Shown here: one piece after another, positions 4,726 to 55,372 of the stretch
How the letters are laid out: every line of letters starts with the position of its first letter
How positions within the stretch are numbered: the first letter of the stretch is position 1
NCBI GenBank assembly: GCA_965200555.1
Contig: OZ241365.1
Location: 1,768,442 to 1,832,441, forward strand
Length of the DNA stretch: 64,000 nt
Source: Dehalococcoidia bacterium
Lineage (GTDB): Bacteria > Chloroflexota > Dehalococcoidia > UBA2979
Direction of reading: 5' to 3'
Translations under genes and position numbers: made by a program
Notes under the pieces: model-generated
Told to the model about the DNA's origin: nothing
Databases searched by the model: none
What the model saw: the letters and a program-made list of their open reading frames with translations, nothing else

Positions 4726-6735
4726 AGGCGTATGCTCGCGGCGGGAGGCCGTCCGATGCGCCCTCGACGCCTCGCCACCGCCGTCGCGCTCCTCGCCGCG
4801 CTCGCGCTCGCCCTCGCCGCGTGCACCGGCAGCGGGCTGCCGCCCGCCGCCGCGCCCGAGGCGTCGCCGGCGGCCGAGGCGCCCTCGGCGCCCGCGCCCG
4901 CCTCGCCGCCGGAGCAGGCGTGCGCGAACGGCGTCGCGGTCGAGGAGACCGCCCCCGCCTCCGAGGGCGGCCCCTGCGTCCCCGCGCGCTACACGGCGGC
5001 CTGCTCGAAGGGCGTCGCGGTGCCGGACCCCGAGGCGAACCGCGGGCTGGTGCGCGACTGCGCGCTGCTGCTGCTCGCGCGCGACCCGCTGCGCGGGACG
5101 GCTCCGCTCAACTGGAGCGAGGACCTGCCGATCGGGGCGTGGGACGGACTCGGCTTCAACGGCGACCCGCCGCGGGTGGACGGCGTGCACCTCCGCGACC
5201 GCGGCCTCGACGGCGTCATCCCTCACTGGCTGGGCGGGCTGACGGAGCTGGTCTACCTGCACCTCGGGGCGCAGAACCACCCGACGGGGCCGATCCCGGC
5301 GGGCCTCGGCGGCCTGCGCGACCTGGCCGGGCTCCACCTCACCAACAACCGGCTGACCGGCGTCATTCCCGACCTCAGCGGCACGAACCTGTCGCGCCTC
5401 GACCTGCGCGGCAACGAGCTCACCGGCGGCGTGCCCGCGTGGCTGGGCGAGATGACGAACCTGCGCGTCCTGAACCTGCGCGGCAACGAGATCACGGGCG
5501 GCGTCCCCGCGCGGCTGGGCGAACTGACGAACCTGCGCGTCCTGAGCCTGCAGGACAACGAGCTGACGGGGCCGATCCCGCGCTCGATCGGCAGGCTGCC
5601 GCTGCTGCGCGAGGTGCGGCTGGCGCAGAACGAGCTGACGGGCTGCGTGCCGTCCCCGCTCGAGGACGTGGCGCCGTCCGGGCCGCGCAACGACGTGGCC
5701 GAGCTCGGCCTGCCGTGGTGCCTGCGCTACGCCCTCGACGCCACCGGCGCGGTCGCATCGGCCGGCCGCTGGGCGATCCTCGACGCCGGGGGCGGTGCGG
5801 ACGCGGGCGGCGGCGGCGTTTCGGGGCAGGCGGAGGCGCCGCCCGCGGTGATCACGACGTGGGAGGGGCTGCGCTCCGAGGCTGCCACGCTGCGCGTCCA
5901 CCAGACCGACGCCGCCGGCACGTCGTGGGCAGCCGAGTTCGGCGCCGTCTCCGAGGACGATCTCTTCGAGTGGCGCAAGGCGTCCGACTGCTGGGTGCGC
6001 TACCGCGTCACCGGCGATCCCGTGCGGCCCGCGGCAGGATCCGGGCGCTGGGAGTTCCCGGTCGAGTGGATGACCTATGCCGCCACCGGCGAGGGCTGCA
6101 CCGGCGCCGTCGGCGCCTCCGCCGTGCTCAGCGCCGACGAGTCCGTGCCCATGGTCATCCCCGCGACCGCGATCACCTCGCCGGTGCGGCACGGAATCGT
6201 GTTGCTCTCCCCCGAGAGCTGGGAGGGCGAAACGGAAACAAGTGAATGGCGCGAACCGCTGCCTACGTTTTCCGGGGGAGTGAACGGCGCCAGCGGGTCG
6301 AGCGCCGACGCCGCGCCCATCGAATTCGGTGTAACGGACAGCCTCGAAGAGGCACGCCGATTCCGGTATTGGCGCGACCCTGTGTTGCCTCCCGGCTGGA
6401 CATTCTTGGGGGTGGAAGCGGGCGGCCACAATGCCCCCTACTTCGGATACTGTGCCGGATGGACGGGAGTCTACGTGTGCGTGAAGGGTGGAGGGTGGCG
6501 TCCGTGGCATCTTTCGGCGAACCCGGTCCATGGTTTGGTCAGCGAGCCGCGCGTCATTGATGGACGCCCGGCGATCGTCCAGTATGCACTTGCGCCCCGG
6601 TATTATAGCGTGAGCGTCTGGATTTTCGACAGGGAAACGGGAATCGAGTATTCGGTAGTTGGCATTGATCATACCTTGCGTGACAGCAACACCGAGGCCG
6701 CGATCGCGATAGCGCGCAGCCTGCTGCCGGATTAG
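4723..6735 (+). CDS. Lipoprotein with 7 plant-type leucine-rich repeats, a conserved central module and a diverged C-terminal domain ending ...AIAIARSLLPD
   Basis: Signal peptide/lipobox (LALALAAC) and a P/A-rich linker are followed by tandem 24-aa LRRs (LxxLxLxxNxLTGxIPxxLGxLxx). The central block LPWCLRY...WEFPVEWMTYAATGEGCTGAVGA is about 90% identical to the downstream paralogue. The C-terminal domain has TGIEY and AIAIARSLLP motifs. Confidence 0.85.
   Translation: MRRMLAAGGRPMRPRRLATAVALLAALALALAACTGSGLPPAAAPEASPAAEAPSAPAPASPPEQACANGVAVEETAPASEGGPCVPARYTAACSKGVAVPDPEANRGLVRDCALLLLARDPLRGTAPLNWSEDLPIGAWDGLGFNGDPPRVDGVHLRDRGLDGVIPHWLGGLTELVYLHLGAQNHPTGPIPAGLGGLRDLAGLHLTNNRLTGVIPDLSGTNLSRLDLRGNELTGGVPAWLGEMTNLRVLNLRGNEITGGVPARLGELTNLRVLSLQDNELTGPIPRSIGRLPLLREVRLAQNELTGCVPSPLEDVAPSGPRNDVAELGLPWCLRYALDATGAVASAGRWAILDAGGGADAGGGGVSGQAEAPPAVITTWEGLRSEAATLRVHQTDAAGTSWAAEFGAVSEDDLFEWRKASDCWVRYRVTGDPVRPAAGSGRWEFPVEWMTYAATGEGCTGAVGASAVLSADESVPMVIPATAITSPVRHGIVLLSPESWEGETETSEWREPLPTFSGGVNGASGSSADAAPIEFGVTDSLEEARRFRYWRDPVLPPGWTFLGVEAGGHNAPYFGYCAGWTGVYVCVKGGGWRPWHLSANPVHGLVSEPRVIDGRPAIVQYALAPRYYSVSVWIFDRETGIEYSVVGIDHTLRDSNTEAAIAIARSLLPD
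5240..5660 (+). repeat. Tandem 72-bp coding repeats (7 LRR units) inside the LRR lipoprotein gene
   Basis: Periodic 24-aa LxxLxLxxNxLTGxIPxxLGxLxx units with matching 72-nt periodicity. Confidence 0.8.
5701..6125 (+). repeat. Conserved central module, copy 1 (about 90% identical to 7351..7730)
   Basis: The stretch LGLPWCLRY...WAILDAGG...TWEGLRSEAATLRVHQTDA.GTSWA.EFGAVSE.DLFEWRKASDCWVRY.VTG.PVRP..GSGRWEFPVEWMTYAATGEGCTGAVGA is shared almost verbatim at DNA level. Confidence 0.8.
6697..6732 (+). repeat. Family 3' tail repeat at the end of LRR lipoprotein 1 (AAIAIARSLLPD*)
   Basis: gcgatcgcgatagcgcgcagcctgctgcc is shared with the copies at about 4690 and about 8415. Confidence 0.65.
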
Positions 6736-6741
6736 CGAGCC

Positions 6742-8456
6742 ATGCGAAAGTTGTTCGCCACCGCCGCCGCGCTCCTCGCCGCGCTCGCCCTCGCCGCGTG
6801 CACCGGCGGCGGGCCGCCGCCCGCCGCCACGCCCGAGGCGACGCCGGCGGCCGAGGCGCCCTCGACGCCCGCGCCCACCGCCATCGCCACCGCCGAGGCG
6901 CCGCCGCTGCCCTCGCCCGCGCCGACGCCGGAGCCGCCGCCGGAGGTGGCGTGTGCGAACGGCGGCGCGGTCGAGGATCCCGAGGCGCGCCCCGGCCTCG
7001 TCGCCGACTGCGTGGCGCTGCTCGCGTCGAGGGATGCGCTGCGCGGCGAGGCGTCGCTCGACTGGGGCGGCGACCTCGCGATCGGGCGCTGGGAGGGCGT
7101 CGCCGTCGGCGGCGAGCCGCCGCGCGTCGTCCGCCTCGACTTGCGCGGCAAGGGACTCACGGGCGCGATCCCTCGCGGGCTGGGCGAGATGGAGAGGCTG
7201 AGCACCTGATCCTCGCGGACAACGCCTTGACGGGCGGCATCCCGCGCCCGATCGGCAGGCTGCCGCGGCTGCGCGAGGTGCGGCTGGCCGGCAACGCGCT
7301 GACGGGCTGCGTGCCCTCGGCGTTCGGGGACGCGAGGGGCGACGCCGCGTACCTCGGCCTCCCGTGGTGCCTGCGCTACGACCGCCTCGACGCCACCGGC
7401 GAGGTCGCCGAGGCGGGCGGCTGGGCGATCCTCGACGCGGGCGGCGAGGTCCTCGCGACGTGGGAGGGGCTGCGCTCCGAGGCGGCCACGCTGCGCGTCC
7501 ACCAGACCGACGCGGGCGGCACGTCGTGGGCGCCGGAGTTCGGCGCCGTCTCCGAGGGCGATCTCTTCGAGTGGCGCAAGGCGTCCGACTGCTGGGTGCG
7601 CTACCACGTCACGGGGCCGCCCGTGCGGCCCTCGGGGGGATCGGGGCGCTGGGAGTTCCCGGTCGAGTGGATGACCTACGCCGCCACCGGCGAGGGCTGC
7701 ACGGGCGCCGTCGGCGCGGCTACCGTGCTTGCCGCCGACGAGGCGCCGCCCGACGTCGTGCGGTCGCCCGATGTGGCGCGGCTCGGAGCGCCGGTGCGTC
7801 ACGGTCCGTTCCTGATGGTGCCGGTTGGCTGGACCGGCGCGATCGAACCGGAGGTCGAAGTCGCCGCGACGCCACCGGTGTTCAAGGTGCCCGAAGGCTC
7901 CGGTGCTTCGGTGTCCGCTGGCCAGTCCGGGGGCAGCGCAACTCCGGAATGGCCGGAGGGCTACCCTCACGCCTCCCAGCTCCGTAGCTACCAGATGCGA
8001 TTGGACGACACGGCGCCGGACTGGGGTATCTCTTCCCGCACGGCGAGTCTCGCCGAGATAAGGCAGCACCCGCTGTGGCGCGAGCCCGCGCTGCCATCGG
8101 GGTGGTACATGCACAAAGCCAAAGCTGTGCTACGGGGGTATGAAGCGCATTACGCGGACGACCAAGGCTTCGATGCGCTCAGAATCAGAATCTGGTGGCT
8201 CCCTTGGGAACCCTATACGGGGCACGTCATCGACCATCCTACGCGCATCCACGAACTGATCATCATTGACGGTCATCCGGCGAAGATTGAGTATGGTTCT
8301 TTGAACGTTGCTTATCCTCATGCGTATGTCACTATCTATGATAAGTCCACTGGCATCGAGTACGAGGTAACGGGAGAGAACGCAAGCCTGCGGGGCGATA
8401 TCGGCGCCGTGATCGCGATAGCGCGCAGCCTGCTGCCGCCGGCTGGCGCGCCGTGA
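6742..8456 (+). pseudogene. Frameshifted paralogue of the LRR lipoprotein (only about 2-3 LRRs; -1 frameshift at about 7205)
   Basis: The N-terminal ORF 6742..7209 (signal peptide, lipobox, linker, first LRR) stops at ...LGEMERLST*. The protein continues in the +2 frame (EHLILADNALTGGIP...) through the conserved central module and a C-terminal domain ending AVIAIARSLLPPAGAP. Adding one C at 'agcacctgatc' (to 'agcaccctgatc') restores a perfect LRR reading frame. Confidence 0.7.
7351..7730 (+). repeat. Conserved central module, copy 2
   Basis: See the 5701..6125 entry. Nucleotide identity is far higher than in the flanking LRR and C-terminal regions, consistent with gene conversion or recent duplication. 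Confidence 0.8.
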
Positions 8457-12649: not shown

Positions 12650-14839
12650 GTGCGGGGACGCATGAAGATCGGCGCGATCGCGGTGCTCGCGGCGGCGATG
12701 GCGATCGCGGCGGCGGCCGCGCTGCCCGGCCCCGCGCCCTCGGAGGCGCAGACCGCGGAGTCCGAGGCGCGCATCGCCGCTCGCCGCCTCGCCGACGGCC
12801 GCGTCGAGTTCGCGCTCCAGCGGCGCACCGCCTCGGGGTGGGGCGAGCGCATCCTGCCCGCGCGGCGCTTCTTCCCCGCCGCGGGCGGAAGCGGCTGGCT
12901 CCACTCCTCGCCCGTGACCGCGGGCGGCGCCGAAGCGCGCATCTCGGCGCGCCGCCTCGCGGACGGCCGCGTCGAGTTCGCGCTCCAGCCGCGCGGCGCC
13001 TCGGGGTGGGGCGAGCGCATCCTGCCGCGGCAACGCTTCTTCCCGGCCGCGGGTGGGGAGCGCTGGCTCAACTCGTCGCCGGTCACGCTTGAAGAGGCGG
13101 AGCCGTCCGCTGCACAAGATGTGCGCCGTTTCGGACCAGTCGCCGGGGACAACCCCGCGTGGTCCCCGGACGGACGGTGGATTGCTTTCACCTCGGATCG
13201 TGATGGAGACACCAAAGTCTATGTGATGAATGCCGATGGCTCGGACATGAGGCGCTTGACTGACTACACTGCTTCTGCTTGGAACGGACCACCGGCGTGG
13301 TCTCCGGACGGACAGCGGATAGCGTTCTCCTCGAACATCGGGATCGTCGTGATGAACGCCGACGGAACGAACGCAAGACGTTTGGGCGGAGCAGGCCGAC
13401 TGGCATGGTCTCCGGACGGGCAGCGAATTGCGTTCGTCCAGGACGATCCCCACCCAATGGTCTACCCTAGTCTTTATGTGATGAACGCCGACGGAACCGG
13501 CATAAAGCTTCTTTCCAATCTTATTAGTTGGCAGGGTCGCCCAGCGTGGTCGCCAGATGGCAGAATTACGTTCGTTTCGCGCCGCGATGGTGGGGACAGC
13601 GACATTTGGGTGGTGAACGCTGACGGGTCGGGCATGAGTCGCTTGACCGACGACTTCGGCTGGGACGGACAGCCGGAGTGGTCGCCGGACGGTCGGTGGC
13701 TCGCGTTCGCCTCCGATCGTGATGGTGATAGGGAATTGTATGTGATGAACGCCGATGGTACGAACGTGAGGCGTTTGACCGACAACGCTGTTTGGGACGG
13801 AGACCCGGCGTGGTCGCCGGACGGTCGACGGATTGCGTTCGCCTCCGGCCGTGATGGTGATGAGGAAGTGTATGTGATGAACGCCGACGGTACGGACGTG
13901 AGACGCTTGACCGACAACGATTGGAGAGACGGAGACCCGGCGTGGTCTCCGGACGGGCGGCGGATCGCATTCGCCTTGGATCACGAAGACGGTCGGGCAA
14001 TCTACGTGACGAGCGCCGAGGCGCCAGCTCTTAGCTCTTTCACGCGGCTGACCGGCAACTCCTTCGCTGAGAGGGGCTTGGCGTGGTCGCCGGACGGGCA
14101 GCAGCTCGCGTTCGCGTCCAATCGTGATGGCGACTGGGAAGTCTACACGATGGACGCCGACGGTTCGGACGTGAGGCGCTTGACCGACAACGCCGTTCAG
14201 GATGCAGAGCCTGCGTGGTCGCCGGACGGGCAACAGATCGCGTTCACCTCCGACCGTGATGGTGACTGGGAGGTGTATGCGATGAATGCCGACGGCTCGA
14301 ACGTGAGGCCCTTGACCGATCACTCTGGCGACGATGTGGCGTCGGCATGGTCGCCGGACGGGCAGCGGATTGCGTTCGCTTCCGACCGTGATGGCGACTG
14401 GGAAATCTTTGTGATGAACGCCAACGGGACAAAGGTGAAGCGCGCGACTCACTCCTTCGCATGGGACACGGCTCCGACATGGTCGCCGACTGGACATCGA
14501 ATTGCGTTCATCTCGAATCGCGATGGAGATGCCGATATCTATGTAATGAATGCCGACGGCTCCCGCGTGAGGAACTTGACCAACAACGCCGTCGCCGATG
14601 CCTATCCGGTATGGTCTCCGGATGGACGTTCGATTGCCTTCTCTTCGAGACTCGATGGAGATTCCGACCGCGAAAGAGATTGGGAGCTCTATGTGATGAA
14701 CGCCGACGGTTCGGAGATAAGGCGTCTGACCGACAACCTCTCCGATGAGTGGGACCCGGCGTGGTCGCCGGACGGGAAGCTGATCGCGTTCGCCTCCGAT
14801 CGCGACGGCGACCTCGACATCTACGTGATCGAGCCTTAG
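12650..14839 (+). CDS. Secreted TolB-like PD40 beta-propeller repeat protein with an N-terminal tandem-duplicated ~55-aa module of unknown function
   Basis: Signal peptide, then 2x (RI[AS]ARRLADGRVEFAL...GWGERILP..RFFPAAGG..WL.SSPVT). About 13 PD40-type units follow (WSPDG.[RQ]IAF.S.RDGD.E[VI]Y[VA]MNADG[ST]..RRLTDN). The repeat region is visibly lower in GC than its surroundings. Confidence 0.85.
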   Translation: MRGRMKIGAIAVLAAAMAIAAAAALPGPAPSEAQTAESEARIAARRLADGRVEFALQRRTASGWGERILPARRFFPAAGGSGWLHSSPVTAGGAEARISARRLADGRVEFALQPRGASGWGERILPRQRFFPAAGGERWLNSSPVTLEEAEPSAAQDVRRFGPVAGDNPAWSPDGRWIAFTSDRDGDTKVYVMNADGSDMRRLTDYTASAWNGPPAWSPDGQRIAFSSNIGIVVMNADGTNARRLGGAGRLAWSPDGQRIAFVQDDPHPMVYPSLYVMNADGTGIKLLSNLISWQGRPAWSPDGRITFVSRRDGGDSDIWVVNADGSGMSRLTDDFGWDGQPEWSPDGRWLAFASDRDGDRELYVMNADGTNVRRLTDNAVWDGDPAWSPDGRRIAFASGRDGDEEVYVMNADGTDVRRLTDNDWRDGDPAWSPDGRRIAFALDHEDGRAIYVTSAEAPALSSFTRLTGNSFAERGLAWSPDGQQLAFASNRDGDWEVYTMDADGSDVRRLTDNAVQDAEPAWSPDGQQIAFTSDRDGDWEVYAMNADGSNVRPLTDHSGDDVASAWSPDGQRIAFASDRDGDWEIFVMNANGTKVKRATHSFAWDTAPTWSPTGHRIAFISNRDGDADIYVMNADGSRVRNLTNNAVADAYPVWSPDGRSIAFSSRLDGDSDRERDWELYVMNADGSEIRRLTDNLSDEWDPAWSPDGKLIAFASDRDGDLDIYVIEP
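12760..13090 (+). repeat. Tandem duplication (2 x about 165 bp) encoding the 'RIxARRLADGRVEFAL' module in the PD40 protein
   Basis: Two consecutive about 55-aa units with about 75% amino-acid identity. Confidence 0.7.
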
Positions 14840-23478: not shown

Positions 23479-25197
23479 ATGCGGCGGCTGCGGGTCGGGC
23501 TGGCGCAGATCAACACCACCGTCGGGGACTTCGCGGGCAACCGCGCGCGCATCCTCGAGGCGGCGCGGCGCGCCTCGGAGCGGGGCGCGGACCTCGTCGC
23601 GTTCCCCGAGCTCGCGGTGACGGGCTACCCGCCCGAGGACCTGCTGCTGCGCGCCTCCTTCGTCGAGGAGGCCGAGGCTTCGCTGCGGACGCTCGCGCGC
23701 GAGGCCGACGGCCTGCCGCCGCTGCTCGTGGGCTGCGTCGAGTACGCCGGCGCGCTCCACAACGCCGCCGCCGTCGTCCACGGCGGCGCCGTCGCCGGCG
23801 TCCACCGCAAGCACCGCCTGCCCAACTACGGCGTCTTCGACGAGCGCCGCTACTTCCGCCCCGGCCGCGGGACGCCGCGCTTCGTCGTCGGCGGCGTGGA
23901 GGTGGCGGCCACGGTCTGCGAGGACATCTGGTACGCCGACGGCCCCGTCCGCGACGCCGCACTCGCCGGCGCCGAGGTGATCGTCAACCTCAACGCCTCG
24001 CCGTTCCACGCCGGCAAGACGCGCGAGCGCGAGCGGATGCTCGCCACGCGCGCCGCCGACAACCGCGTCGCCATCGCCTACGTCAACCAGGTCGGCGGGC
24101 AGGACGAGCTGGTCTTCGACGGCAACTCGCTCGTGCTCGGCCCGCGCGGCGAACTGCTCGCGCGCGGGGCCTCGATGCGCGAGGACCTCGTCGTCGCCGA
24201 CGTCGACGTCGACGCGGTGCGGCAGGCGCGGCTGCACGAGGGGCGGCTGCGCCTCCCGCCGGACGCCGCCGCCCCCGCCCCGCCCGTGCGCGTCACCGCC
24301 GCGCGCGAGGACGCGCCGCCGCCGCTGCCGCCGCCCGCCCTCGACCCGCCCGGCGAACTCGCCGAGGTCTACGACGCGCTCGTCGCCGGCACGCGCGACT
24401 ACGTGCGGAAGTCGGGCTTCGCGGACGCGATCGTGGCGCTCTCGGGCGGCATCGACTCCTCGCTCGTGGCGGCGGTGGCGGTGGACGCGCTGGGGGCGGA
24501 GCGCGTGCGCGGCGTCTCGCTGCCCTCGCGCTACTCCTCGGAAGGCTCGGTGGCCGACGCGCGCGAGCTCGCCGCGCTGCTCGGCGTCGAGCTCGTCGCG
24601 ATGCCGATCGAGGCGCTGCACCGCGCGGCGCTCGACGCGCTGGCCGCCCCCTTCGCCGGCACGAGCGAGGGCGTGGCCGAGGAGAACCTGCAGTCGCGGC
24701 TGCGCGCGATGCTCGTCATGGCGCTCTCCAACAAGTCCGGCGCGCTCGTCCTCACCACCGGCAACAAGTCGGAGTACGCCTGCGGCTACGCCACGCTCTA
24801 CGGCGACATGGCGGGCGGCTTCGCGGTGATCAAGGACGTGCCCAAGACCCTCGCCTACCGCCTCGCCCGCCACCGCAACGGGCGCGGCATGGCGATCCCG
24901 CAGGCCGTGCTCGACAAGCCCCCCTCCGCCGAACTGCGCCCCGGCCAGCTCGACACCGACTCGCTCCCCCCCTACGGGACGCTCGACCCGATCGTCGAGG
25001 CCTACGTCGAGGACGACGCCTCGTTCGAGGCGATCGTGGCGCGCGGCTTCGAGGCGGAGACGGTGCGCCGCGTGATCGCCCTGATCGACCGCAACGAGTA
25101 CAAGCGCCGCCAGGCCCCGCCCGGCGTCAAGATCACGCCGCGCGCCTTCGGCCGCGACCGCCGCTACCCCCTCGCCTCGCGCTACCGCGGCGGCTGA
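23479..25197 (+). CDS. nadE: Glutamine-dependent NAD+ synthetase (N-terminal CN-hydrolase domain + C-terminal NAD synthetase domain)
   Basis: The nitrilase-like domain is present (LRVGLAQIN..., FPELAVTGY, CEDIWY) and the ATP-PPase domain follows (SGGIDSS P-loop, ...TTGNKSE). The listed ORF start at 23407 is a spurious N-extension. Confidence 0.9.
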   Translation: MRRLRVGLAQINTTVGDFAGNRARILEAARRASERGADLVAFPELAVTGYPPEDLLLRASFVEEAEASLRTLAREADGLPPLLVGCVEYAGALHNAAAVVHGGAVAGVHRKHRLPNYGVFDERRYFRPGRGTPRFVVGGVEVAATVCEDIWYADGPVRDAALAGAEVIVNLNASPFHAGKTRERERMLATRAADNRVAIAYVNQVGGQDELVFDGNSLVLGPRGELLARGASMREDLVVADVDVDAVRQARLHEGRLRLPPDAAAPAPPVRVTAAREDAPPPLPPPALDPPGELAEVYDALVAGTRDYVRKSGFADAIVALSGGIDSSLVAAVAVDALGAERVRGVSLPSRYSSEGSVADARELAALLGVELVAMPIEALHRAALDALAAPFAGTSEGVAEENLQSRLRAMLVMALSNKSGALVLTTGNKSEYACGYATLYGDMAGGFAVIKDVPKTLAYRLARHRNGRGMAIPQAVLDKPPSAELRPGQLDTDSLPPYGTLDPIVEAYVEDDASFEAIVARGFEAETVRRVIALIDRNEYKRRQAPPGVKITPRAFGRDRRYPLASRYRGG

Positions 25198-25317: not shown

Positions 25318-26688
25318 TCAGCAGGGCGGGAGATCGTCGGTTAGGACATCCCCTTTATCCAGCGCGCGGGGGAGGCAGCCGGTCAACTCGTTCCCGCTGA
25401 GCCATAGCGTCTCAAGGTTCGCCAAGCCGCCGAGTTCGGGCGGGATGCCGCCGCTCAGATCGTTGTCGCGGAGCCTCAAAGACCGCAGGTTCGCCAAGCC
25501 GTCGAGTTCGGGCGGGATGCTGCCAGTCAACCCGTTCCCGCTGAGGCCCAAATACTCCAGGTTCGCCAAGCCGCCGAGTTCGGGCGGGATGCTGCCGCTC
25601 AACTCGTTCAAATCGAGCTGCAACAGCCACAGGTTCGCCAAGCGGCCGAGTTCGGGCGGGATGCTCCCGCTCAACTCGTTCCCGTCGAGCCACAACTGCC
25701 GCAGGTTCGCCAAGCGGCCGAGTTCGGGCGGGATGCTGCCGCTCAACTCGTTCCCGCCGAGCCACAACTGCCGCAGGTTCGCCAAGCGGCCGAGTTCGGG
25801 CGGGATGCTGCCAGTCAACTCGTTATAACCGAGATGCAAAGCCTGCAGGTTCGCCAAGCAGCCGAGTTCGGGAGGGATGCTGCCAGTCAACTCGTTATAA
25901 TCGAGATGCAAAGCCTGCAGGTTCGCCAAGCGGCCGAGTTCGGGCGGGATGCTGCCGCTCAACCCGTTAAAGTCGAGGCCCAGACCGGTGACGCGGGGCG
26001 GCGATCCCCCGATCGTGACGCCTTCCCACTGGTCCATCGGCGTCGCGACGCTCCAATTCGGCACTCTGCCGTCGCCCGCGAGGACGTCGCGGACGGCGAG
26101 CAGCGTCTCGCGGTCCGCGGCCAGCCCCGGGTTGCGGTCCGGCTCCGCCACCGCGCCGCCCGGGCACGACGCCCGAGGCGCCGGCGCCGGCGCCGCCGCC
26201 GAGGGGGACGTGGCGGTCGGCGCGCCCTCGCCGGGAGCGCTTGCGCCGACGAACACCGGCGACGATCGGAGCCATCTGCCTCGGCTGCCCGCCGGGAAGT
26301 AGCGGGAGGACGGCAGGACGCGGTCGCCCCACTCGCCGTCCGTTCCGCGCTCGCTCAACGCGAACTCGATGCGCCCGTCGCCGAGGCGGCGCGCCTCGAT
26401 CCGGACCGTTGGGGCGGGAGCGCTTGCGCCGACGGACACCGGCGACGATCGGAGCCATCTGCCTCGGCTGCCCGCCGGGAAGTAGCGGGAGGACGGCAGG
26501 ATGCGGTCGCCCCACTCGCCGTCCGTTCCGCGCTCGCTCAACGCGAACTCGACGCGCCCGTCGTCGAGGCGGCGCGCCTCGATCCGCACCTCGACGCCAC
26601 TGTTCTGCGCCGCCGCCAGCCCGATGCCGAGGGCGGCGACTGCGCCGAGCAGCACCGCCAGCAGTCCTGCGGTCTTCCCGTTCGCCAT
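25318..26688 (-). CDS. Secreted LRR protein A: signal peptide + 2x 'RIEARRL' module + about 8 plant-type LRRs, ending ...GCLPRALDKGDVLTDDLPPC
   Basis: The probable start is MANGKTAGLLAVLLGAVAALGIGLAAAQ (ATG at 26688 preceded by GGAGG; the listed ORF start at 26796 is an extension). The tandem ~55-aa modules are followed by 24-aa LRRs (LSGSIPPELGRLANLxxLxLxxNE). Confidence 0.85.
   Translation of the reverse strand: MANGKTAGLLAVLLGAVAALGIGLAAAQNSGVEVRIEARRLDDGRVEFALSERGTDGEWGDRILPSSRYFPAGSRGRWLRSSPVSVGASAPAPTVRIEARRLGDGRIEFALSERGTDGEWGDRVLPSSRYFPAGSRGRWLRSSPVFVGASAPGEGAPTATSPSAAAPAPAPRASCPGGAVAEPDRNPGLAADRETLLAVRDVLAGDGRVPNWSVATPMDQWEGVTIGGSPPRVTGLGLDFNGLSGSIPPELGRLANLQALHLDYNELTGSIPPELGCLANLQALHLGYNELTGSIPPELGRLANLRQLWLGGNELSGSIPPELGRLANLRQLWLDGNELSGSIPPELGRLANLWLLQLDLNELSGSIPPELGGLANLEYLGLSGNGLTGSIPPELDGLANLRSLRLRDNDLSGGIPPELGGLANLETLWLSGNELTGCLPRALDKGDVLTDDLPPC
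25330..25940 (-). repeat. Tandem 72-bp LRR coding repeats (about 8 units) in LRR-A
   Basis: Near-identical 72-nt units are visible directly in the sequence (e.g. ...ggcgggatgctgccgctcaactcgtt...caggttcgccaagcggccgagttcggg...). Confidence 0.85.
26268..26601 (-). repeat. Tandem duplication (2 x about 165 bp) encoding the 'RIEARRL' module in LRR-A
   Basis: The two units are nearly identical at DNA level (...gtcgccccactcgccgtccgttccgcgctcgctcaacgcgaactcga...). Confidence 0.85.
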
Positions 26689-26817: not shown

Positions 26818-26893
26818 CGCGCCGAGGCTACCCCGGTCGGGACGCCCGCGGCAAGCGGCGCCTCGCTGAGCCGCGCCCTCGCCGCGCGCGGCG

Positions 26894-49794: not shown

Positions 49795-50622
49795 GTGGAG
49801 GACTACCTGCTCGCGGCGGCGCTCGGCCTCGTGCAGGCGCTGACCGAGTTCCTGCCGATCTCCTCGTCCGGGCACCTCGCGGTCGCGGGCGAGGTCGCGG
49901 GGGGCGAGGTCCGCGGCCTCACCTTCGACGTGGGGCTGCACCTCGGCACGACGGCGGCGGTGCTGGCGTACTTCCGGCGCGACTGGGCGCTGATCGCCGC
50001 GTCGGCGTGGCGCGACGCGCGCGCGCACGGAGGCGCGGTGCGGCGCTGGCGCTGGCGCTCGCGGCTGGGGCTGCTGCTCGCGCTCGGCTCGCTGCCCGCC
50101 GCCGCCGCGGGCGCGGCGCTCGAACTCGCCGCCGACGGCGGGCCGCGCAGCCCGCCCGTGGTGGGCGCGGCGCTGATCGCGGGCGGCGCGCTGATGTGGG
50201 CGATCGACGCCCGCGCGCGCGCGGGCGGCGGCCTGCGCGCCGTCGACGCCCCCCGCGCGCTCGCCGTCGGCGCGGCCCAGGCCGTCGCGCTCGTCCCCGG
50301 CGTCTCGAGGTCGGCGGCGACGATCTCGGCGGGGCGCGCGCTCGGCCTCGACCGCACCGCCGCCGCCCGCTTCTCGTTCCTGCTCTCCGCGCCCGTCACG
50401 CTCGGCGCCGGCGCCGTGCTCGTGCGCGAGGCCGCCCGGCGGCCGGACGAGGTGGCGTGGGGGCCGATGCTGCTCGGCGCCGCCGTGGCCGCGCTCGCCG
50501 GCCTGCTCGCGATCGGCTGGCTGCTGCGCTTCCTGCGCCGCCGCGGCCTGCGCGTCTTCGCGTGGTACCGCATCGCCCTCGGCGCCGCCGTGCTCGCCGC
50601 CGTCCAGGCCGGCGCGCTCTGA
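49795..50622 (+). CDS. uppP: Undecaprenyl-diphosphate phosphatase
   Basis: LTEFLPISSSGHL..., ALVPGVSRSAATI..., and a polytopic hydrophobic profile are present. GTG start. Confidence 0.85.
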   Translation: MEDYLLAAALGLVQALTEFLPISSSGHLAVAGEVAGGEVRGLTFDVGLHLGTTAAVLAYFRRDWALIAASAWRDARAHGGAVRRWRWRSRLGLLLALGSLPAAAAGAALELAADGGPRSPPVVGAALIAGGALMWAIDARARAGGGLRAVDAPRALAVGAAQAVALVPGVSRSAATISAGRALGLDRTAAARFSFLLSAPVTLGAGAVLVREAARRPDEVAWGPMLLGAAVAALAGLLAIGWLLRFLRRRGLRVFAWYRIALGAAVLAAVQAGAL

Positions 50623-50668: not shown

Positions 50669-51460
50669 ATGACGCACGCCGACGCCGCGCCCGACGCACC
50701 CGCCGCCGCTGCGCCCGGCGCCCTCGCCGGGCGCAAGGCGCTCGTCGTCGGCGTGGAGACGGCGGCGGGGGGCGCGATCGCCTCGGCGCTCGGCGCGGCG
50801 GGGGCCGATGTGGCGCTGGCCGTGCTGCGGCCCGACGAGGGCGTGCTGGCGGCGCGCCGCATCCAGCGCGAGCTGCGCGCGCTGGGCCGCGCGGCCTACA
50901 CCTACGCGCTGGACGCGACGCTCGGCCAGAACGCGAAGGTCACGACGCGGCAGGTGGCGAAGGAGCTGGGCGGCCTCGACCTCGTGGTCAGCGCCGCCGA
51001 CGCGCCGCTGGCCGGCCCGCTCGCGCGCACCTCGGAGGCGCAGCTGGGGCAGGCGATGGCGCTCAACTGCCACGCCCACGCCTGGGTCGCGCGCGCCGCC
51101 TTCGACGAGTTCCGCCGCGGCGGGCGCGGCTGCCTGCTGATCGTCACGCACGTGCTCGGCGAGCGGCCCGCGCCCGGCGCGGGCGCCTACGCGCTCGCCT
51201 GCGCCGCCGCGATCGGCCTCGGACGCGCGCTCGCCGCCGAGCACGCCGCGCCCGGCCTCGCCGCCGTCACGCTGCTGCGGGGGGCCGCCGCGTTCGACCC
51301 CTCGGCCGTCGCCGCCGACGGCGGCGGCCTCGAGGCCGCGATCGCGGGCGCCGACGCCGCCGAGGCCCCGGCGCTCGCCCGCCTCGCCACGGAGGCCGCC
51401 GCCAGCCCGCCCGAGGCGGTGACGGGCCGCGTGCTCTCCGCCGCCGCGGACGCGCCGTGA
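50669..51460 (+). CDS. SDR-like Rossmann-fold protein with degenerate glycine motif (possibly non-catalytic)
   Basis: LAGRKALVVGVETAAGGAIASALGAAGADVALAV resembles the SDR N-terminus but lacks a clean TGxxxGIG and YxxxK. Its stop overlaps the GTG of the next gene (GTGA). Confidence 0.5.
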   Translation: MTHADAAPDAPAAAAPGALAGRKALVVGVETAAGGAIASALGAAGADVALAVLRPDEGVLAARRIQRELRALGRAAYTYALDATLGQNAKVTTRQVAKELGGLDLVVSAADAPLAGPLARTSEAQLGQAMALNCHAHAWVARAAFDEFRRGGRGCLLIVTHVLGERPAPGAGAYALACAAAIGLGRALAAEHAAPGLAAVTLLRGAAAFDPSAVAADGGGLEAAIAGADAAEAPALARLATEAAASPPEAVTGRVLSAAADAP

Positions 51461-53415
51461 GCGCCGCGGGCGGCCTCGCCCGCCTTAGCGCCGCGCTGGC
51501 GCTGCTGCTCGTGCTGTCCACCGCCTGCGGGGGCGGCGCGCCGGACGGCGGCGGCGGGCAGGCCGGGCCGTCCGTTCCCTCGCCGGGGCTGACGCAGGCC
51601 GGCGCGGCGGCGCTGATCGCGGTCGGCGAATCCCACGTCTGCGACCTGCGGCGGGACGGGACGATCGTCTGCCGGGGCAACGTCCACGGGGGATGGCCGG
51701 ACGGCGGGGGGTGGGTGCGGATCACGTCGGGGCGAGACTTCTCCTGCGCGCTGCGCGGCGACGGAACCCTCGCCTGCTGGGGCGTCGGCGCCCACGGCGA
51801 GACCGATCCGCCGGACGGGAGGTTCGCTTCCGTGGACGCGGGGCGGCGTCACGCCTGCGCCCTCGACGCCGCCGGCTTCGCGACGTGCTGGGGCCGCGAC
51901 GACGACGGCCGGACGGCGGCGCCTCCTGACGTAGCGTTCGCCTCGATCGGGGCGGGCGACGCCCACGGCTGCGGCCTGACGCCCGGCGGCGAGCTGCGCT
52001 GCTGGGGCGCCAACGGGGACGGACAGGCCGAGCCGCGCCCCGGCCCCTTCCGCGCGCTGGCCGTCGGCGCGCGCCACACCTGCGCGCTGCGAGGCGACGG
52101 GACCGCCTTCTGCCAGGGTTCGGACGGGGACGGCGAGGCCAGCCCGCCGGACACGGCGTTCCTCGCGATCGCCGCCGGCGACGGGCGGACCTGCGGGATC
52201 GCCGCCGGAGGCTCGCTGACGTGCTGGGGCCGCGGCCGGCCGCTCGCGCCGGAGGGCGCGTTCGCGTCGGTCAGCGTCGGACGGTACGAGACCTGCGCCG
52301 TGCGGACGGACGGCCGCGCCGAGTGCTGGCCCCACGGGCCGTCGCCGGACGGCGGGGGCGTGCGCGCAGAGCTCGCGCTGGCGGGCCGCGACCTCGATCA
52401 GCCGGTCGAGCTGTTCCCGTGGCCGGGCGGCGGCCTCGCCGTGGCGGACCGCAGCGGCTACGTCGACGTCTACGCCCCGGACGGGGCGGAGCCGCGGCGG
52501 GCGCTCGACCTGACCGGCCTGATCGCGACCGCCTGTTGCGACCTCGAAAGCGGGCTGCTCAGCGCGGCGCCGGACCCGGAGTTCGGGGCGTTCCCGTACC
52601 TCTACGTCTACTGGACGGCGGACGCGGTCGGCGAAGCGGACATGGCCGCGGCGCGACTCTCCCGCTTCCCGGTCGCCGGCGGGCGGGCCGTGCGCGAGGA
52701 CGAGCTGGTCATCCTCGACATCCCCCTGGCGAGGAAACACTTCGGGGGCGCCGTCCGCTTCGGCCCGGACGGGATGCTGTACCTGTCGCTGGGTGATCTG
52801 GGCAGCATAGAGGACGCGCAGGACCCGGGCACGCTGGGAGGGACGATCGTCCGCATCGACGTGCGGGGCGCGACGGCGCAACGGCCCTACCGCGTCCCGG
52901 ACGACAACCCGTTCGCCGCGTCGCCGGACGCGCGGCCCGAGATCTGGGCCTACGGCCTCCGCAATCCCTGGCGGATGCACTTCGGGCCGGACGGCCGCCT
53001 GTGGGTCGGCGACGTGGGCCAGAACTCGTTCGAGGAGGTGTCGATCGCCTCGGCGGGCGCGAACCTCGGCTGGCCCGCCGCCGAGGGCGACGCCTGCTAC
53101 TGGGGCGAAGACGTCTGCGCGTCCACGACGCCGCCGGCGGCGGCCTACGGCCACACCGAAGGGAACTGCGCGGTCGTCGGCGGCCTCGCGCTGCCCGAAC
53201 CCGACGGCAGGTACGTGTTCGCCGACTTCTGCAGCGGCAGGGTGTGGGCGCTGGAAGGCGGCGACGGGGACTGGCGGATGCGGGAGCTGCTGGACCTGCC
53301 GCTGTCCGTCAGCTCGTTCGGGCGCGGCCACGACGGCGAGGTGTACGTGCTCACCTTCCGCGGCCCCGCGCTCCGGCTGGCGATCGGGCCCGGCGCCGGT
53401 GAGGCCTCGCCCTGA
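51457..53415 (+). CDS. Lipoprotein: about 7 RCC1-like repeats fused to a C-terminal soluble glucose/sorbosone dehydrogenase-like (SGDH/PQQ-dependent) beta-propeller
   Basis: Signal peptide + lipobox (LVLSTAC). Repeated H.C.L..DG...CWG blades are present (HVCDL, FSCALRGDGTLACWG, HACAL..FATCWG, HGCGL..LRCWG, HTCAL, RTCGI..LTCWG, ETCAV). The C-terminal YGLRNPWRMHFGPDGRLWVGDVGQNSFEEVS...GANLGWP is the SGDH family signature. Confidence 0.8.
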   Translation: MSAAGGLARLSAALALLLVLSTACGGGAPDGGGGQAGPSVPSPGLTQAGAAALIAVGESHVCDLRRDGTIVCRGNVHGGWPDGGGWVRITSGRDFSCALRGDGTLACWGVGAHGETDPPDGRFASVDAGRRHACALDAAGFATCWGRDDDGRTAAPPDVAFASIGAGDAHGCGLTPGGELRCWGANGDGQAEPRPGPFRALAVGARHTCALRGDGTAFCQGSDGDGEASPPDTAFLAIAAGDGRTCGIAAGGSLTCWGRGRPLAPEGAFASVSVGRYETCAVRTDGRAECWPHGPSPDGGGVRAELALAGRDLDQPVELFPWPGGGLAVADRSGYVDVYAPDGAEPRRALDLTGLIATACCDLESGLLSAAPDPEFGAFPYLYVYWTADAVGEADMAAARLSRFPVAGGRAVREDELVILDIPLARKHFGGAVRFGPDGMLYLSLGDLGSIEDAQDPGTLGGTIVRIDVRGATAQRPYRVPDDNPFAASPDARPEIWAYGLRNPWRMHFGPDGRLWVGDVGQNSFEEVSIASAGANLGWPAAEGDACYWGEDVCASTTPPAAAYGHTEGNCAVVGGLALPEPDGRYVFADFCSGRVWALEGGDGDWRMRELLDLPLSVSSFGRGHDGEVYVLTFRGPALRLAIGPGAGEASP

Positions 53416-53454
53416 CGCCGCGCCCCTCGCCCCGATGCGCGGCGCCGGGCCGGC

Positions 53455-53499
53455 GCGCGTTCCCGATCGTGAACAGCCGCCCGTATGCTGGGCGCGCCG
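53455..53499 (+). repeat. 44-bp direct repeat, left copy (gcgcgttcccgatcgtgaacagccgcccgtatgctgggcgcgcc) flanking LRR-B
   Basis: It matches 54707..54750 with 2 mismatches. The two copies bracket the LRR-B gene and its 5'UTR. Confidence 0.8.
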
Positions 53500-53580
53500 A
53501 TGGCCGCGGGCGTCCCTACCGGGTAGCCTCTGCCTGCGCCGCGAGGAGGCGCCCTCATCGCGAACGGGAAGACCGCGGGA

Positions 53581-54621
53581 TTGCTGGCGGTGCTGCTCGG
53601 CGCAGTCTCCGCGCTGGGCTTCGCGCTGGCGGCGGCACGGAACAGCGGCGCCGAGGTGCGGATCGAGGCGCGCCGCCTCGACGACGGGCGCGTCGAGTTC
53701 GCGTTGAGCGAGCGCGGAGCGGACGGCGAGTGGGGCGACCGCATCCTGCCGTCCTCCCGCTACTTCCCGGCGGGCAGCCGCGGCGGATGGCTCCGATCGT
53801 CGCCGGTGTCCGTCGGCGCAGGCGCTCCCGCCCCGGCGGTGCGGATCGAGGCGCGCCGCCTCGGCGACGGGCGCATCGAGTTCGCGTTGAGCGAGCGCGG
53901 AACGGACGGCGAGTGGGGCGACCGCGTCCTGCCGTCCTCCCGCTACTTCCCGGCGGGCAGCCGCGGCGGATGGCTCCGATCGTCGCCGGTGTCCGTCGGC
54001 GCAAGCGCTCCCGCCGCCGCGTCCCCCTCGGCGGCGGCGCCCGCGCCGGCGCCTCGGGCGTCGTGCCCGGACGGCGCGGTGGCGGAGCTGGACGGCAACC
54101 CGGGACTGGCCGCGGACGGCGAGCAGCGTCTCGCCGTCCGCGACGTCCTCGCGGGCGACGGCGAAGTGCTGAATTGGAGCGCCGCGCTGCCGATGGACCA
54201 GTGGGAAGGCGTCACGATCGGGGGATCGCCGCCCCGCGTCACCGTTCTATTGCTCACTAGGGCTGGGAACGGGTTGAGCGGCAGCATCCCGCCCGAACTC
54301 GGCCGCTTGGCGAACCTGGAGTGGCTGAGCCTCGACGGGAACGAGTTGAGCGGCAGCATCCCGCCCGAACTCGGCGGCTTGGCGAACCTGGAGTGGCTGA
54401 ACCTCAACGGGAACGAGTTGAGCGGCAGCATCCCGCCCGAACTCGGCGGCTTGGCGAAGCTGGAGGGGTTGTGGCTTCGCGGGAACGGGTTGAGCGGCAG
54501 CATCCCGCCCGAACTCGGCAACCTGGCGAAGCTGGAGGGGCTGAGTCTGCGCGGGAACGCGCTGACCGGCTGCCTCCCCCGCGCGCTGGATAACCTGACC
54601 GACGCGCTCCCGCCCTGCTGA
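53581..54621 (+). CDS. Secreted LRR protein B (paralogue of LRR-A, 4-5 LRRs); the ancestral start codon position now reads ATC
   Basis: More than 90% nucleotide identity to LRR-A over the 5'UTR, signal peptide and the 2x 'RIEARRL' modules. It ends ...GCLPRALDNLTDALPPC. At the position of LRR-A's ATG (after AGGAGG+7) the sequence is ATC (IANGKTAGLL...), so the first ATG is 7 codons downstream (MLAVLLG...). Confidence 0.75.
   Translation: MLAVLLGAVSALGFALAAARNSGAEVRIEARRLDDGRVEFALSERGADGEWGDRILPSSRYFPAGSRGGWLRSSPVSVGAGAPAPAVRIEARRLGDGRIEFALSERGTDGEWGDRVLPSSRYFPAGSRGGWLRSSPVSVGASAPAAASPSAAAPAPAPRASCPDGAVAELDGNPGLAADGEQRLAVRDVLAGDGEVLNWSAALPMDQWEGVTIGGSPPRVTVLLLTRAGNGLSGSIPPELGRLANLEWLSLDGNELSGSIPPELGGLANLEWLNLNGNELSGSIPPELGGLAKLEGLWLRGNGLSGSIPPELGNLAKLEGLSLRGNALTGCLPRALDNLTDALPPC
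53645..53985 (+). repeat. Tandem duplication (2 x about 165 bp) encoding the 'RIEARRL' module in LRR-B
   Basis: Same module as in LRR-A, more than 90% identical in nucleotide sequence. Confidence 0.85.
54277..54600 (+). repeat. Tandem 72-bp LRR coding repeats (4-5 units) in LRR-B
   Basis: Periodic LSGSIPPELGxLAxLExLxLxGNx units. Confidence 0.85.
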
Positions 54622-54706
54622 CGGCGCCGCCCGCACCCGGCGTCCGGCGGCCCCGACCGGTGTCGCGGGCGGGCGCGGCAGGCGCTGTCGTCCGCGGTAA
54701 GCTGTC

Positions 54707-54750
54707 GCGCGTTCCCGATCGTGAACCGCCGCCCGTATGCTGGACGCGCC
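54707..54750 (+). repeat. 44-bp direct repeat, right copy (gcgcgttcccgatcgtgaaccgccgcccgtatgctggacgcgcc)
   Basis: See the left copy at 53455..53499. Confidence 0.8.
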
Positions 54751-54850
54751 CGCGCCGGCCCGCTTCCGGCGGGCGGAGGGCGTCGCGGGTGCGGGAGGCG
54801 CGCGCGGTGAACGGCGACGGTCCGCGACGGGCGGCGGGAGGCGGCGCGCC

Positions 54851-55372
54851 GTGAGCGCGGCGGACGGCCTCGCGGGCCGTCACGCGCTGGTGGCCGCCGC
54901 GCGCGAACCCGAGGGCCGCGCCCTCGCCCTCGCCCTCGCCGCCGCCGGCGCGACCGTCAGCGTCGCGACGGCGCGCGACGACCGCGCCGAGGAGGTGACG
55001 GCGCACTCGATCCTCAACGAGTGCTGGACGCTCGGACGCGACGGCCGCGCGCTCCGCCTCGACCTCGCCGACCCCGCCGCCGCCGATGCCGCCCTCGCCG
55101 GCCTCGAGGCCGCGGTCGCGCCCCTCGACGCGCTGGTGATCGCCCCCCCGCGCGAGGGCGACGGCGACGCCTCGGCGTTCGCGGATGCGGCGGCGCGCCG
55201 CATGGCGGAGCGCGGCGGCGGGCGCATCGCGCTCTGCGCGGGCGCGGACGGCGGCGAGGCGGCGCGCGCTCTCGCCGCGTCGCTGTCCGCGCGCTGGGCG
55301 GAGCGCGGCGTCGGCGCCTCGGCGGTGGAGGCGGTCGGCGACGCGGTGGCGGCGGCGGTCGGCGCCCCGTGA
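54851..55372 (+). CDS. Short SDR-like fragment, paralogous to 50669..51460
   Basis: GTG start. LAGRHALVAAAREPEGRALALALAAAGATVSVAT parallels the N-terminus of the SDR-like protein at 50669. The first 25 nt are also homologous to the start of the RCC1-SGDH lipoprotein gene (gtgagcgcNgcggNcggcctcgc). Confidence 0.35.
   Translation: MSAADGLAGRHALVAAAREPEGRALALALAAAGATVSVATARDDRAEEVTAHSILNECWTLGRDGRALRLDLADPAAADAALAGLEAAVAPLDALVIAPPREGDGDASAFADAAARRMAERGGGRIALCAGADGGEAARALAASLSARWAERGVGASAVEAVGDAVAAAVGAP

Follow-up and report, generated by a model that had tools for sequence, protein, structure and literature searches.

The window analysed here is a 64,000-nt stretch of DNA from a Dehalococcoidia bacterium of the UBA2979 lineage (Chloroflexota; contig OZ241365.1, positions 1,768,442 to 1,832,441), with a G+C content of 74.7%. 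In its right part, the genes for BacA (49795-50622), a short-chain dehydrogenase/reductase (SDR; 50669-51460) and an RCC1-repeat/glucose-sorbosone dehydrogenase (RCC1-GSDH) are followed by LRR-B, a leucine-rich repeat (LRR) gene, and then by a short SDR-like gene, S21 and YqeY. LRR-B lies between two copies of a direct repeat, designated DR1 and DR2, and LRR-A, encoded on the opposite strand, is the sole paralog of this cassette within the window. The locus was compared with eight ENA metagenome contigs that carry an RCC1-GSDH ortholog and its downstream region (designated by L numbers). The features of the cassette, its repeats and its paralog are as follows.

53454-53498, plus strand: DR1, left copy of a 45-nt direct repeat, located by repeat and alignment searches
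53499-53556, plus strand: 5' region of the cassette, LRR-A-derived (89% identity to window positions 26861-26824)
53557-54621, plus strand: LRR-B open reading frame (ORF) read from an ATC that aligns to the LRR-A ATG; stop codon at 54619-54621
54622-54705, plus strand: 3' spacer from the LRR-B stop codon to DR2, left over from a longer flank
54706-54750, plus strand: DR2, right copy of the repeat, also present in L002, L011, L013 and, cut by the contig end, L001
25318-26688, minus strand: LRR-A, the putative donor paralog, with an ATG start, nine IPPEL-type LRR units and a terminal unit
26825-26866, minus strand: segment upstream of LRR-A that is copied in LRR-B, with a promoter-like TTGCCG-N18-TAGCCT (26854-26825)
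25173-25197, minus strand: 3' end of nadE (TCAGCCGCCGCGGTAGCGCGAGGCG), downstream of LRR-A; a 22-nt piece of it, unique in the window, is found identically upstream of LRR-B in L011

The original prediction described 44-bp direct repeats that exactly bracket the LRR-B cassette. The repeats are genuine, and their identity extends one base further to the left, giving 45 nt; the end assigned to the left copy (53499) was one base too far. DR1 and DR2 are identical at 43 of 45 positions, with mismatches at 53475 (A/C) and 53492 (G/A), and the longest unbroken identity between them is 21 nt. With up to three mismatches allowed, GCGCGTTCCCGATCGTGAAC has exactly two matches in the window (53455-53474 and 54707-54726), where 0.04 would be expected, and GCCGCCCGTATGCTGG follows it in register in both copies. 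The bracketing is less exact than was proposed. The paralogy with LRR-A begins at 53494, directly at the right edge of DR1, but it ends at about 54630, approximately 10 nt past the stop codon, leaving about 76 nt to DR2 (85 nt from the stop codon itself).

LRR-B is composed of a signal-peptide-like N-terminus, two 61-amino-acid (aa) modules (53646-54011), a linker, and four IPPEL-type LRR units with a terminal unit. Pfam matches to LRR_1 (60.8 bits), LRR_4 (47.3) and LRR_8 (43.3) identify it as a bacterial LRR protein, and LRR-A scores higher. The coding regions of LRR-A and LRR-B are 89-95% identical. The 5' region of the cassette contains a weakened form of the LRR-A promoter-like site, TGGCCG (53501-53506), N17 and TAGCCT (53524-53529), and the 3' flank is longer in L011 and L001, where about 65 nt of LRR-A downstream sequence and about 186 nt more are present. 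The states of the window and of the related loci at this site are given below.

Window: DR1 full; ATC at the LRR-A start position; LRR-B intact with 4 IPPEL units; DR2 full
L013: DR1 full; ATC; codon 9 is CTG and a new in-frame ATG lies at codon 16; LRR-B intact with ~13 units; DR2 full
L001: DR1 full; ATC; ~15 units, with a +2 frameshift; DR2 cut by the contig end
L002: DR1 full; ATC; one N-terminal module and 2 units; DR2 full
L012: DR1 full, with a perfect palindrome; ATG; leader and signal peptide LRR-A-like; DR2 beyond the contig end
L011: only GCGCGTTC and then a nadE fragment, no DR1; ATG; LRR-B-type leader, 12 units; DR2 full
L007: a single diverged homolog of the 44-mer; LRR-B absent; gltB directly next
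L010: a single diverged homolog of the 44-mer; LRR-B absent; a D12 methyltransferase fragment and an SNF2 helicase next

The RCC1-GSDH orthologs in L008 and L009 (62-67% identical) have unrelated downstream neighbours and are uninformative for the site. Against genome contigs, the RCC1-GSDH protein matched distant relatives only, at 33-43% identity.

The proposal that the cassette arose by insertion or duplication into an intergenic site is borne out by L007 and L010, which share the upstream gene and the left flank, and in L007 also the right flank, without LRR-B. Three neighbouring features frame this comparison.

51457-53415, plus strand: RCC1-GSDH gene, the conserved left anchor, identified by protein domain and ortholog matches
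54807-54854, plus strand: 15-codon leader ORF and its stop (GTG AAC GGC GAC...), homologous to the first gltB codons in L007
54851-55372, plus strand: short SDR-like gene downstream of DR2 (adh_short, E=8.4e-7; L011 ortholog at 14203-14787)

In L007, the RCC1-GSDH stop codon is followed by CGCCGCGC, which aligns with the left flank of DR1, as does the left flank in L010; the right flank of L007 (GCTTCCGGCG.GCGGA.GGGGCGTCGCGGGT.CGGGAGGCGCG.GC.GTGAACGGCG) aligns with that of DR2. Between the flanks of L007 and L010 stands GCGCTTTACAGATTGTGAAATATTGCGCACAATGCGGGTCCGCCGCCATCGGCGGACCGGTATGATTGGG, whose left 21 nt agree with the 44-mer in 15 positions when aligned by eye. The whole middle segment, GCGCTTTACAGATTGTGAAAT...CCGCCGCC...CGGTATGATTGG, can likewise be aligned by eye with the 44-mer, apart from two insertions specific to L007; CCGCCGCC and CGGTATGATTGG correspond to its right half. 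A search for an empty site with one copy of the 44-mer had been proposed as a check of the prediction. Sites lacking LRR-B and carrying a single homolog do exist, but the homolog is diverged and is not a clean 44-mer. As the empty sites have such a homolog and the 44-mer is missing from the LRR-A locus, this sequence was originally part of the target site and was not brought in by the cassette.

DR2 lies 65 nt upstream of the leader ORF, which is the surviving 5' remnant of an ancestral gltB; in L007 gltB itself is recognised by its GATase_2 match (E=5.6e-81), and it is absent from the window. The leader ORF and the SDR-like gene may be translationally coupled, as the TGA of the former and the GTG of the latter overlap (GTGA). 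The genes found at the site after RCC1-GSDH (L007 1975-2095, L010 11925-12010, L011 14851-15816) differ among strains, with gltB in L007 and a D12 methyltransferase fragment and SNF2 helicase in L010, and an IS481-type transposase gene follows the SDR-like gene in L011. The region after RCC1-GSDH, directly downstream of the putative promoter in the 44-mer, is thus a hot spot of strain-level rearrangement. After the more distant RCC1-GSDH ortholog of L009, positions 3700-3960 contain TTGACG-N17-TACGAT and then a non-coding stretch of about 200 nt that resembles a structured RNA gene.

Regarding the nature of the repeated segment, the 44-45-mer is most likely the native core promoter of the intergenic region after RCC1-GSDH, with the predicted form TTCCCG-N18-TATGCT. 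The hexamers are positioned as follows.

DR1, plus strand: -35-like TTCCCG at 53460-53465 and -10-like TATGCT at 53484-53489
DR2, plus strand: -35-like hexamer at 54712-54717 and -10-like hexamer at 54736-54741

This arrangement is found 65-67 nt upstream of both downstream start codons. The homolog in L007 and L010 holds the hexamers TTTACA-N17-CACAAT, and rpsU is preceded by TTGACG-N18-TACGAT. The pattern TT[GC][AC]C[GA]-N17-18-TAnnnT has five matches on both strands of the window, compared with 0.8 in shuffled sequences; these are the two repeat copies and the sites before rpsU, LRR-A and an ORF starting at 45756 (minus strand), all of them upstream of starts and in the correct orientation. 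Among five lineages, DR1 is variable in 3 of 44 columns, compared with 14 of 41 in the spacer to its left (Fisher p=0.002). DR1 also contains a near-palindrome, GTTCCCGATCGTGAAC, at 53459-53474. The main variable site is position 16 of the repeat (T, G or A), and G at this position creates a perfect 16-bp palindrome, GTTCCCGATCGGGAAC, which could serve as an operator.

As for the way in which the cassette arrived, the overall account that we favour, with a little more than even confidence, is that the native promoter was duplicated around an inserted copy of LRR-A and that the ATC was inherited. The LRR-A unit would have been copied within the same genome, from about 57 nt upstream of its start to just past its stop codon, and would have landed in the promoter region downstream of RCC1-GSDH, so that a promoter segment now stands on both sides, with DR1 in front of LRR-B and DR2 in front of the leader ORF and the SDR-like gene. 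Judging from one relative, L011, the copy probably came from an LRR-A unit that was circular or duplicated in tandem. Positions 12005-12026 of L011 are identical (22/22, E=7e-7) to the last codons of nadE (window 25194-25173), and the microhomology GCGAGGCG forms the joint between this piece and the segment upstream of LRR-A (26866-26824), while the 3' flank of L011 contains 65 nt of LRR-A downstream sequence (25299-25235, 95% identity). As the distal flank from nadE here lies upstream of the proximal flank of LRR-A, the donor sequence is circularly permuted, which implies a donor in circular or tandem form. In L001, the 3' flank is of the L011 type minus a deletion between CGCCTCGC repeats, and the window, L013 and L002 have a further 3'-flank deletion in common.

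Such an event would resemble known duplication-insertions of paralogs that pass through a circular or tandem intermediate, as in Campbell-type integration or at RecA-independent duplication junctions. A unit of about 1.2-2 kb has been copied between loci of one genome, the donor flanks are circularly permuted in L011, the target sequence is repeated on both sides, and the junctions show short GC-rich microhomologies (GCGAGGCG, GCGCG-TC and GCGCC). The LRR-B case differs in that its 44-nt repeat coincides with a putative promoter and in that one allele has no left copy; its mechanism, like the order of events, is read from sequence comparison.

Two histories of the repeat can be considered within this framework. 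In the first, to which we give somewhat less than an even chance, DR1 and the ATC were present in the common ancestor, and L011 and L012 would be later conversions from LRR-A-type donors. This history is favoured because of the distances of the flanking gene, as RCC1-GSDH forms the groups {window, L013, L012} and {L001, L002, L011}, with L007 and L010 as the outgroup. In the second, which we regard as rather unlikely, the state of L011 is ancestral; the cassette would have been inserted with 5-9 nt of junction homology (GCGCGTTC), and DR1 would have been copied later from DR2 over the nadE fragment by a microhomology-mediated template switch, so that the 44-nt repeat would not be an insertion footprint. 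L011 indeed has GCGCGTTC, the nadE fragment and CGCCGATGG where the window has the rest of DR1, with identical sequence on either side of the replaced patch, and it keeps ATG and the longest LRR-A-type 3' flank, from which the L001 flank derives. However, RCC1-GSDH of L011 groups with those of L001 and L002, which have a full DR1 and ATC, so that L011 is derived on the simplest tree, and conversion is improbable when the homology at either end is just 5-8 nt long. The tree itself is not decisive because the strains are mosaic: the 5' part of RCC1-GSDH in L002 clusters with L007, yet L002 has the 3'-flank deletion of the window.

Several points count against the account of an inserted LRR-A copy flanked by a duplicated native promoter. 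The repeats had been predicted to be the signature of an insertion; the insertion itself stands, but L011 is without DR1, so the duplication is perhaps secondary and the 44 nt need not be the original footprint. In addition, we know of no simple mechanism that gives a 44-nt target duplication. The related contigs are short metagenome assemblies, in which assembly errors within repeats are possible. With respect to the promoter, the -35 hexamer is weak, a stricter sigma-70 consensus scan of 53300-55000 was blank and no terminator was found there either, and the promoter pattern was written after the repeat had been seen, so that its support consists of the three non-repeat matches only. The conservation of DR1 may in part be explained by homogenisation between DR1 and DR2 instead of function.

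Regarding the start codon, LRR-B carries AGGAGG (53544-53549), a 7-nt spacer and ATC GCG AAC GGG AAG (ATC at 53557-53559), and LRR-A on the minus strand reads AGGAGG-N7-ATG GCG AAC GGG AAG (ATG at 26688-26686), in agreement with the prediction that ATC occupies the position of the ancestral ATG. ATC stands in four independent assemblies (the window, L001, L002 and L013). LRR-A does not share it; ATG is present in LRR-A and in the LRR-B alleles of L011 and L012. The change from ATG to ATC is a real, inherited point mutation in four sampled lineages. L011 combines the ATG with an LRR-B-type leader, and L012 looks like an LRR-A-to-LRR-B conversion tract that would extend from the leader to about codon 30.

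A start at a downstream ATG, as previously suggested, does not fit the sequence, in which MLAVLLGAV... begins at a TTG (53581) and no Met codon occurs in frame before residue 213. With the frame closed upstream by a TAG at 53524, initiation could occur at ATC 53557, TTG 53581 or GTG 53590; the database protein P0001 (343 aa) fits a start at the GTG. The TTG is not conserved (CTG in L013). The GTG at codon 12 is conserved, but LRR-A has it too, as an internal Val codon. By eye, the signal peptide (M/I)ANGK-TAGLLAVLLGAVSALGFALAAA-RNS fits if translation starts at ATC, and the TTG and GTG starts lose the Lys. AGGAGG-N7 is invariant in the four ATC alleles, and the only variable sites in codons 2-11 of these alleles, GCG/GCA and TTG/CTG, are synonymous in the ATC frame. 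In L013, the ATG at codon 16 was gained through four changes within 6 nt. Since the strong Shine-Dalgarno sequence, its 7-nt spacing and the long ORF have been kept, translation of LRR-B has likely been retained.

LRR-B thus most likely continues to be translated, with ATC as a weak start or with TTG/GTG as a start that shortens the signal peptide. Weak initiation at ATC with the full signal peptide would be quite possible, although we rate it below an even chance, and initiation at TTG or GTG with a truncated signal peptide seems less probable. In Escherichia coli, AUC supports initiation at approximately 1-2% of the AUG level (bioRxiv 10.1101/063800), a value for E. coli and not for Chloroflexota. 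LRR-B can be likened to genes in which near-cognate starts lower expression, since a strong, well-spaced Shine-Dalgarno sequence precedes an AUC aligned to the AUG of a paralog in four lineages; it differs from them in that its AUC is a putative start. The AUU of infC is an example of such a near-cognate start.

An alternative that we consider doubtful is that the LRR-B of the window is a decaying pseudogene, inactivated by the change from ATG to ATC, whose ORF stays open because GC-rich sequence seldom makes stop codons. The canonical start has been lost, the 3' flanking sequence has been deleted stepwise, one N-terminal module is missing in L002 and L013, and L002 is down to two IPPEL-type units. 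The ratio of nonsynonymous to synonymous substitution rates (dN/dS) among the ATC alleles is 0.72-1.07, and L001 has its +2 frameshift and a premature stop; these two observations also speak against the account preferred above. On the other hand, ATG-bearing copies have an equally high dN/dS (0.87 for LRR-A and L011), making this a property of the family. Values for all pairs of LRR copies range from 0.7 to 1.6, compared with 0.2-0.64 for RCC1-GSDH, so the LRR family is fast-evolving whatever the start codon, and because every LRR copy is near 1, dN/dS does not discriminate between a functional and a decaying copy. Of the four ATC alleles, three are intact, including those of the window and of L013 (501 aa as called), which has ~13 units and the new in-frame ATG. 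The Shine-Dalgarno sequence and spacing and the two synonymous sites described above also argue against decay. Furthermore, the coding indels preserve the frame, being multiples of 3, and upstream non-coding indels are of 1-2 nt, a comparison weakened by the occurrence of several coding indels in triplet-periodic or unit repeats.

It is improbable, in our estimation, that the repeats are recombination sites, at which a circular LRR-A-derived molecule would have integrated in Campbell style or through a site-specific recombinase acting on the palindrome, and from which the cassette would be excised by DR1 x DR2 recombination. In favour of this reading, the permuted junction between nadE and the LRR-A upstream segment of L011 calls for a circular or tandem intermediate, close relatives differ in whether they have LRR-B, and some repeat copies carry the perfect palindrome GTTCCCGATCGGGAAC. 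Nevertheless, no recombinase, transposase or terminal inverted repeat was found in or beside the cassette, the locus has no real tRNA, the unbroken identity of 21 nt between DR1 and DR2 is short, and the empty sites hold a diverged promoter-like homolog instead of a clean single 44-mer. A precise-excision allele, in which one near-identical 44-mer would stand between RCC1-GSDH and the SDR-like gene, was seen at none of the eight related loci (0/8). The earlier suggestion of a cassette that can excise between its repeats therefore stays conjecture.

The locus can also be compared with known mobile elements. Insertion sequences (IS), transposons and miniature inverted-repeat transposable elements (MITEs) likewise have target direct repeats around the insert and empty sites in relatives. 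Their target-site duplications are typically 2-14 bp, whereas the repeat here is 44-45 bp, and the cassette is an ordinary cellular paralog without terminal inverted repeats or a transposase. An inverted-repeat search of 53400-54800 returned no pair at the inner border of either direct repeat. A transposable element was accordingly rejected, as there are no terminal inverted repeats, the sole long ORF in coding frame encodes the LRR protein and the cassette has no paralog in the window other than LRR-A. An integrase island with att repeats was rejected as well, with no integrase among the neighbours and no tRNA target. The 91-nt 'tRNA-His' called by ARAGORN at 54820-54910, across the beginning of the SDR-like gene, matches no Rfam tRNA even at E<=10 and forms no cloverleaf, and it was discarded as a false positive in GC-rich sequence. 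A 12-nt perfect inverted repeat, CGGGCCGGCGCG/CGCGCCGGCCCG (53446-53457 and 54751-54762), abuts the outer edges of DR1 and DR2, but it is not conserved and shows no covariation in L002, L011 and L013; by a rough estimate for this GC content, about 1-2 such pairs would be expected by chance. An RNA element was ruled out, since Rfam gave nothing relevant at gathering thresholds over the whole window or at E<=10 over 53400-55000 and the DR1 region folds no better than shuffled sequence (z=+0.42).

It is very improbable that the 44-mer, GC-rich and near-palindromic as it is, represents a dispersed intergenic repeat (of the repetitive extragenic palindromic, REP, or MITE type) or a terminator present twice here by chance, because it has two copies in 64 kb, occurs in related contigs at this locus only and lacks related matches in the collections, and has neither the T-run nor the folding signal of a terminator. 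In about 56 kb of related contigs (L010-L013) it was found at this locus alone. Pattern scans of 185,579 representative genomes and of metagenome contigs gave no match, and JGI metagenomes gave one match only (L014), which is unrelated and attributable to chance. The many copies that would mark a dispersed repeat (REP or bacterial interspersed mosaic element, BIME, type) were thus found neither in the window and the related contigs nor in the genome and metagenome collections, and within this scope the 44-mer is not the common dispersed repeat that was raised as the counter-explanation of the original prediction. Taken together, the arrangement of LRR-B would be classed as paralog duplication-insertion with promoter duplication, since what defines transposons, integrase islands and dispersed repeats is missing.

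LRR-A and LRR-B resemble the eukaryotic-like LRR proteins of uncultured Chloroflexota and symbionts in their secreted-type N-terminus, their tandem 24-residue LRR units (Pfam LRR_1, LRR_4 and LRR_8), the presence of several paralogs per genome and a unit number that varies from ~2 to 15 between strains. They differ in their duplicated N-terminal 61-aa module, which has no Pfam family. A connection to sponge symbiosis is only suggested, by the database names 'Chloroflexota bacterium' and by the accession series. The ~61-aa module (VRIEARRLxDGRVEFALSERGxDGEWGDRxLPSSRYFP...) is tandemly duplicated at the N-termini of LRR-A (26232-26590) and LRR-B (53646-54011), and a further occurrence (~12762-13086) opens a gene with tandem repeats of 132 nt at ~12.7-14.8 kb, again without Pfam coverage. 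A second pair of LRR paralogs, at 4803-6143 and 6780-7744, is 90-94% identical over 100-300 nt, which suggests that duplication may be ongoing in the LRR gene family.

The leader of LRR-A has an extra 109 nt (26824-26716, minus strand) that is absent from every LRR-B leader. This insertion folds as one long hairpin (-94.7 kcal/mol in a 166-nt context, z=-4.1, with 0 of 200 shuffles as stable) and contains CCTCCTTGCGG, the complement of the Shine-Dalgarno region CCGCAAGGAGG. The insertion has a single copy in the window and the related loci and matches no Rfam family; it may represent a riboregulator of translation or an inserted element of MITE type.

The LRR-B locus is accounted for by known processes in a fast-evolving LRR family and is fairly ordinary; it is no new kind of genetic element. 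For annotation, the start of LRR-B is uncertain, as the deposited protein fits GTG 53590, yet a perfectly spaced Shine-Dalgarno sequence precedes ATC 53557. As a long shot, LRR-A and LRR-B may be a donor/acceptor pair in a variable secreted-protein locus driven by gene conversion, in which conversion from LRR-A or from its circular units would reshuffle the unit number (~2 to 15), the signal-peptide region and the choice of ATG or ATC between strains, transcription would be kept constant by the duplicated promoter, and the expression of a host-interaction protein would be switched between high and low at the population level. In any case, the locus provides a natural example of the expansion of a repeat-protein family in an uncultured, very GC-rich Chloroflexota lineage, in which eight related alleles catch the stages of the process, from the site without LRR-B and the allele with a permuted flank to those with promoter copies on both sides, those with ATG or ATC at the start position, and those that are frameshifted or contracted.

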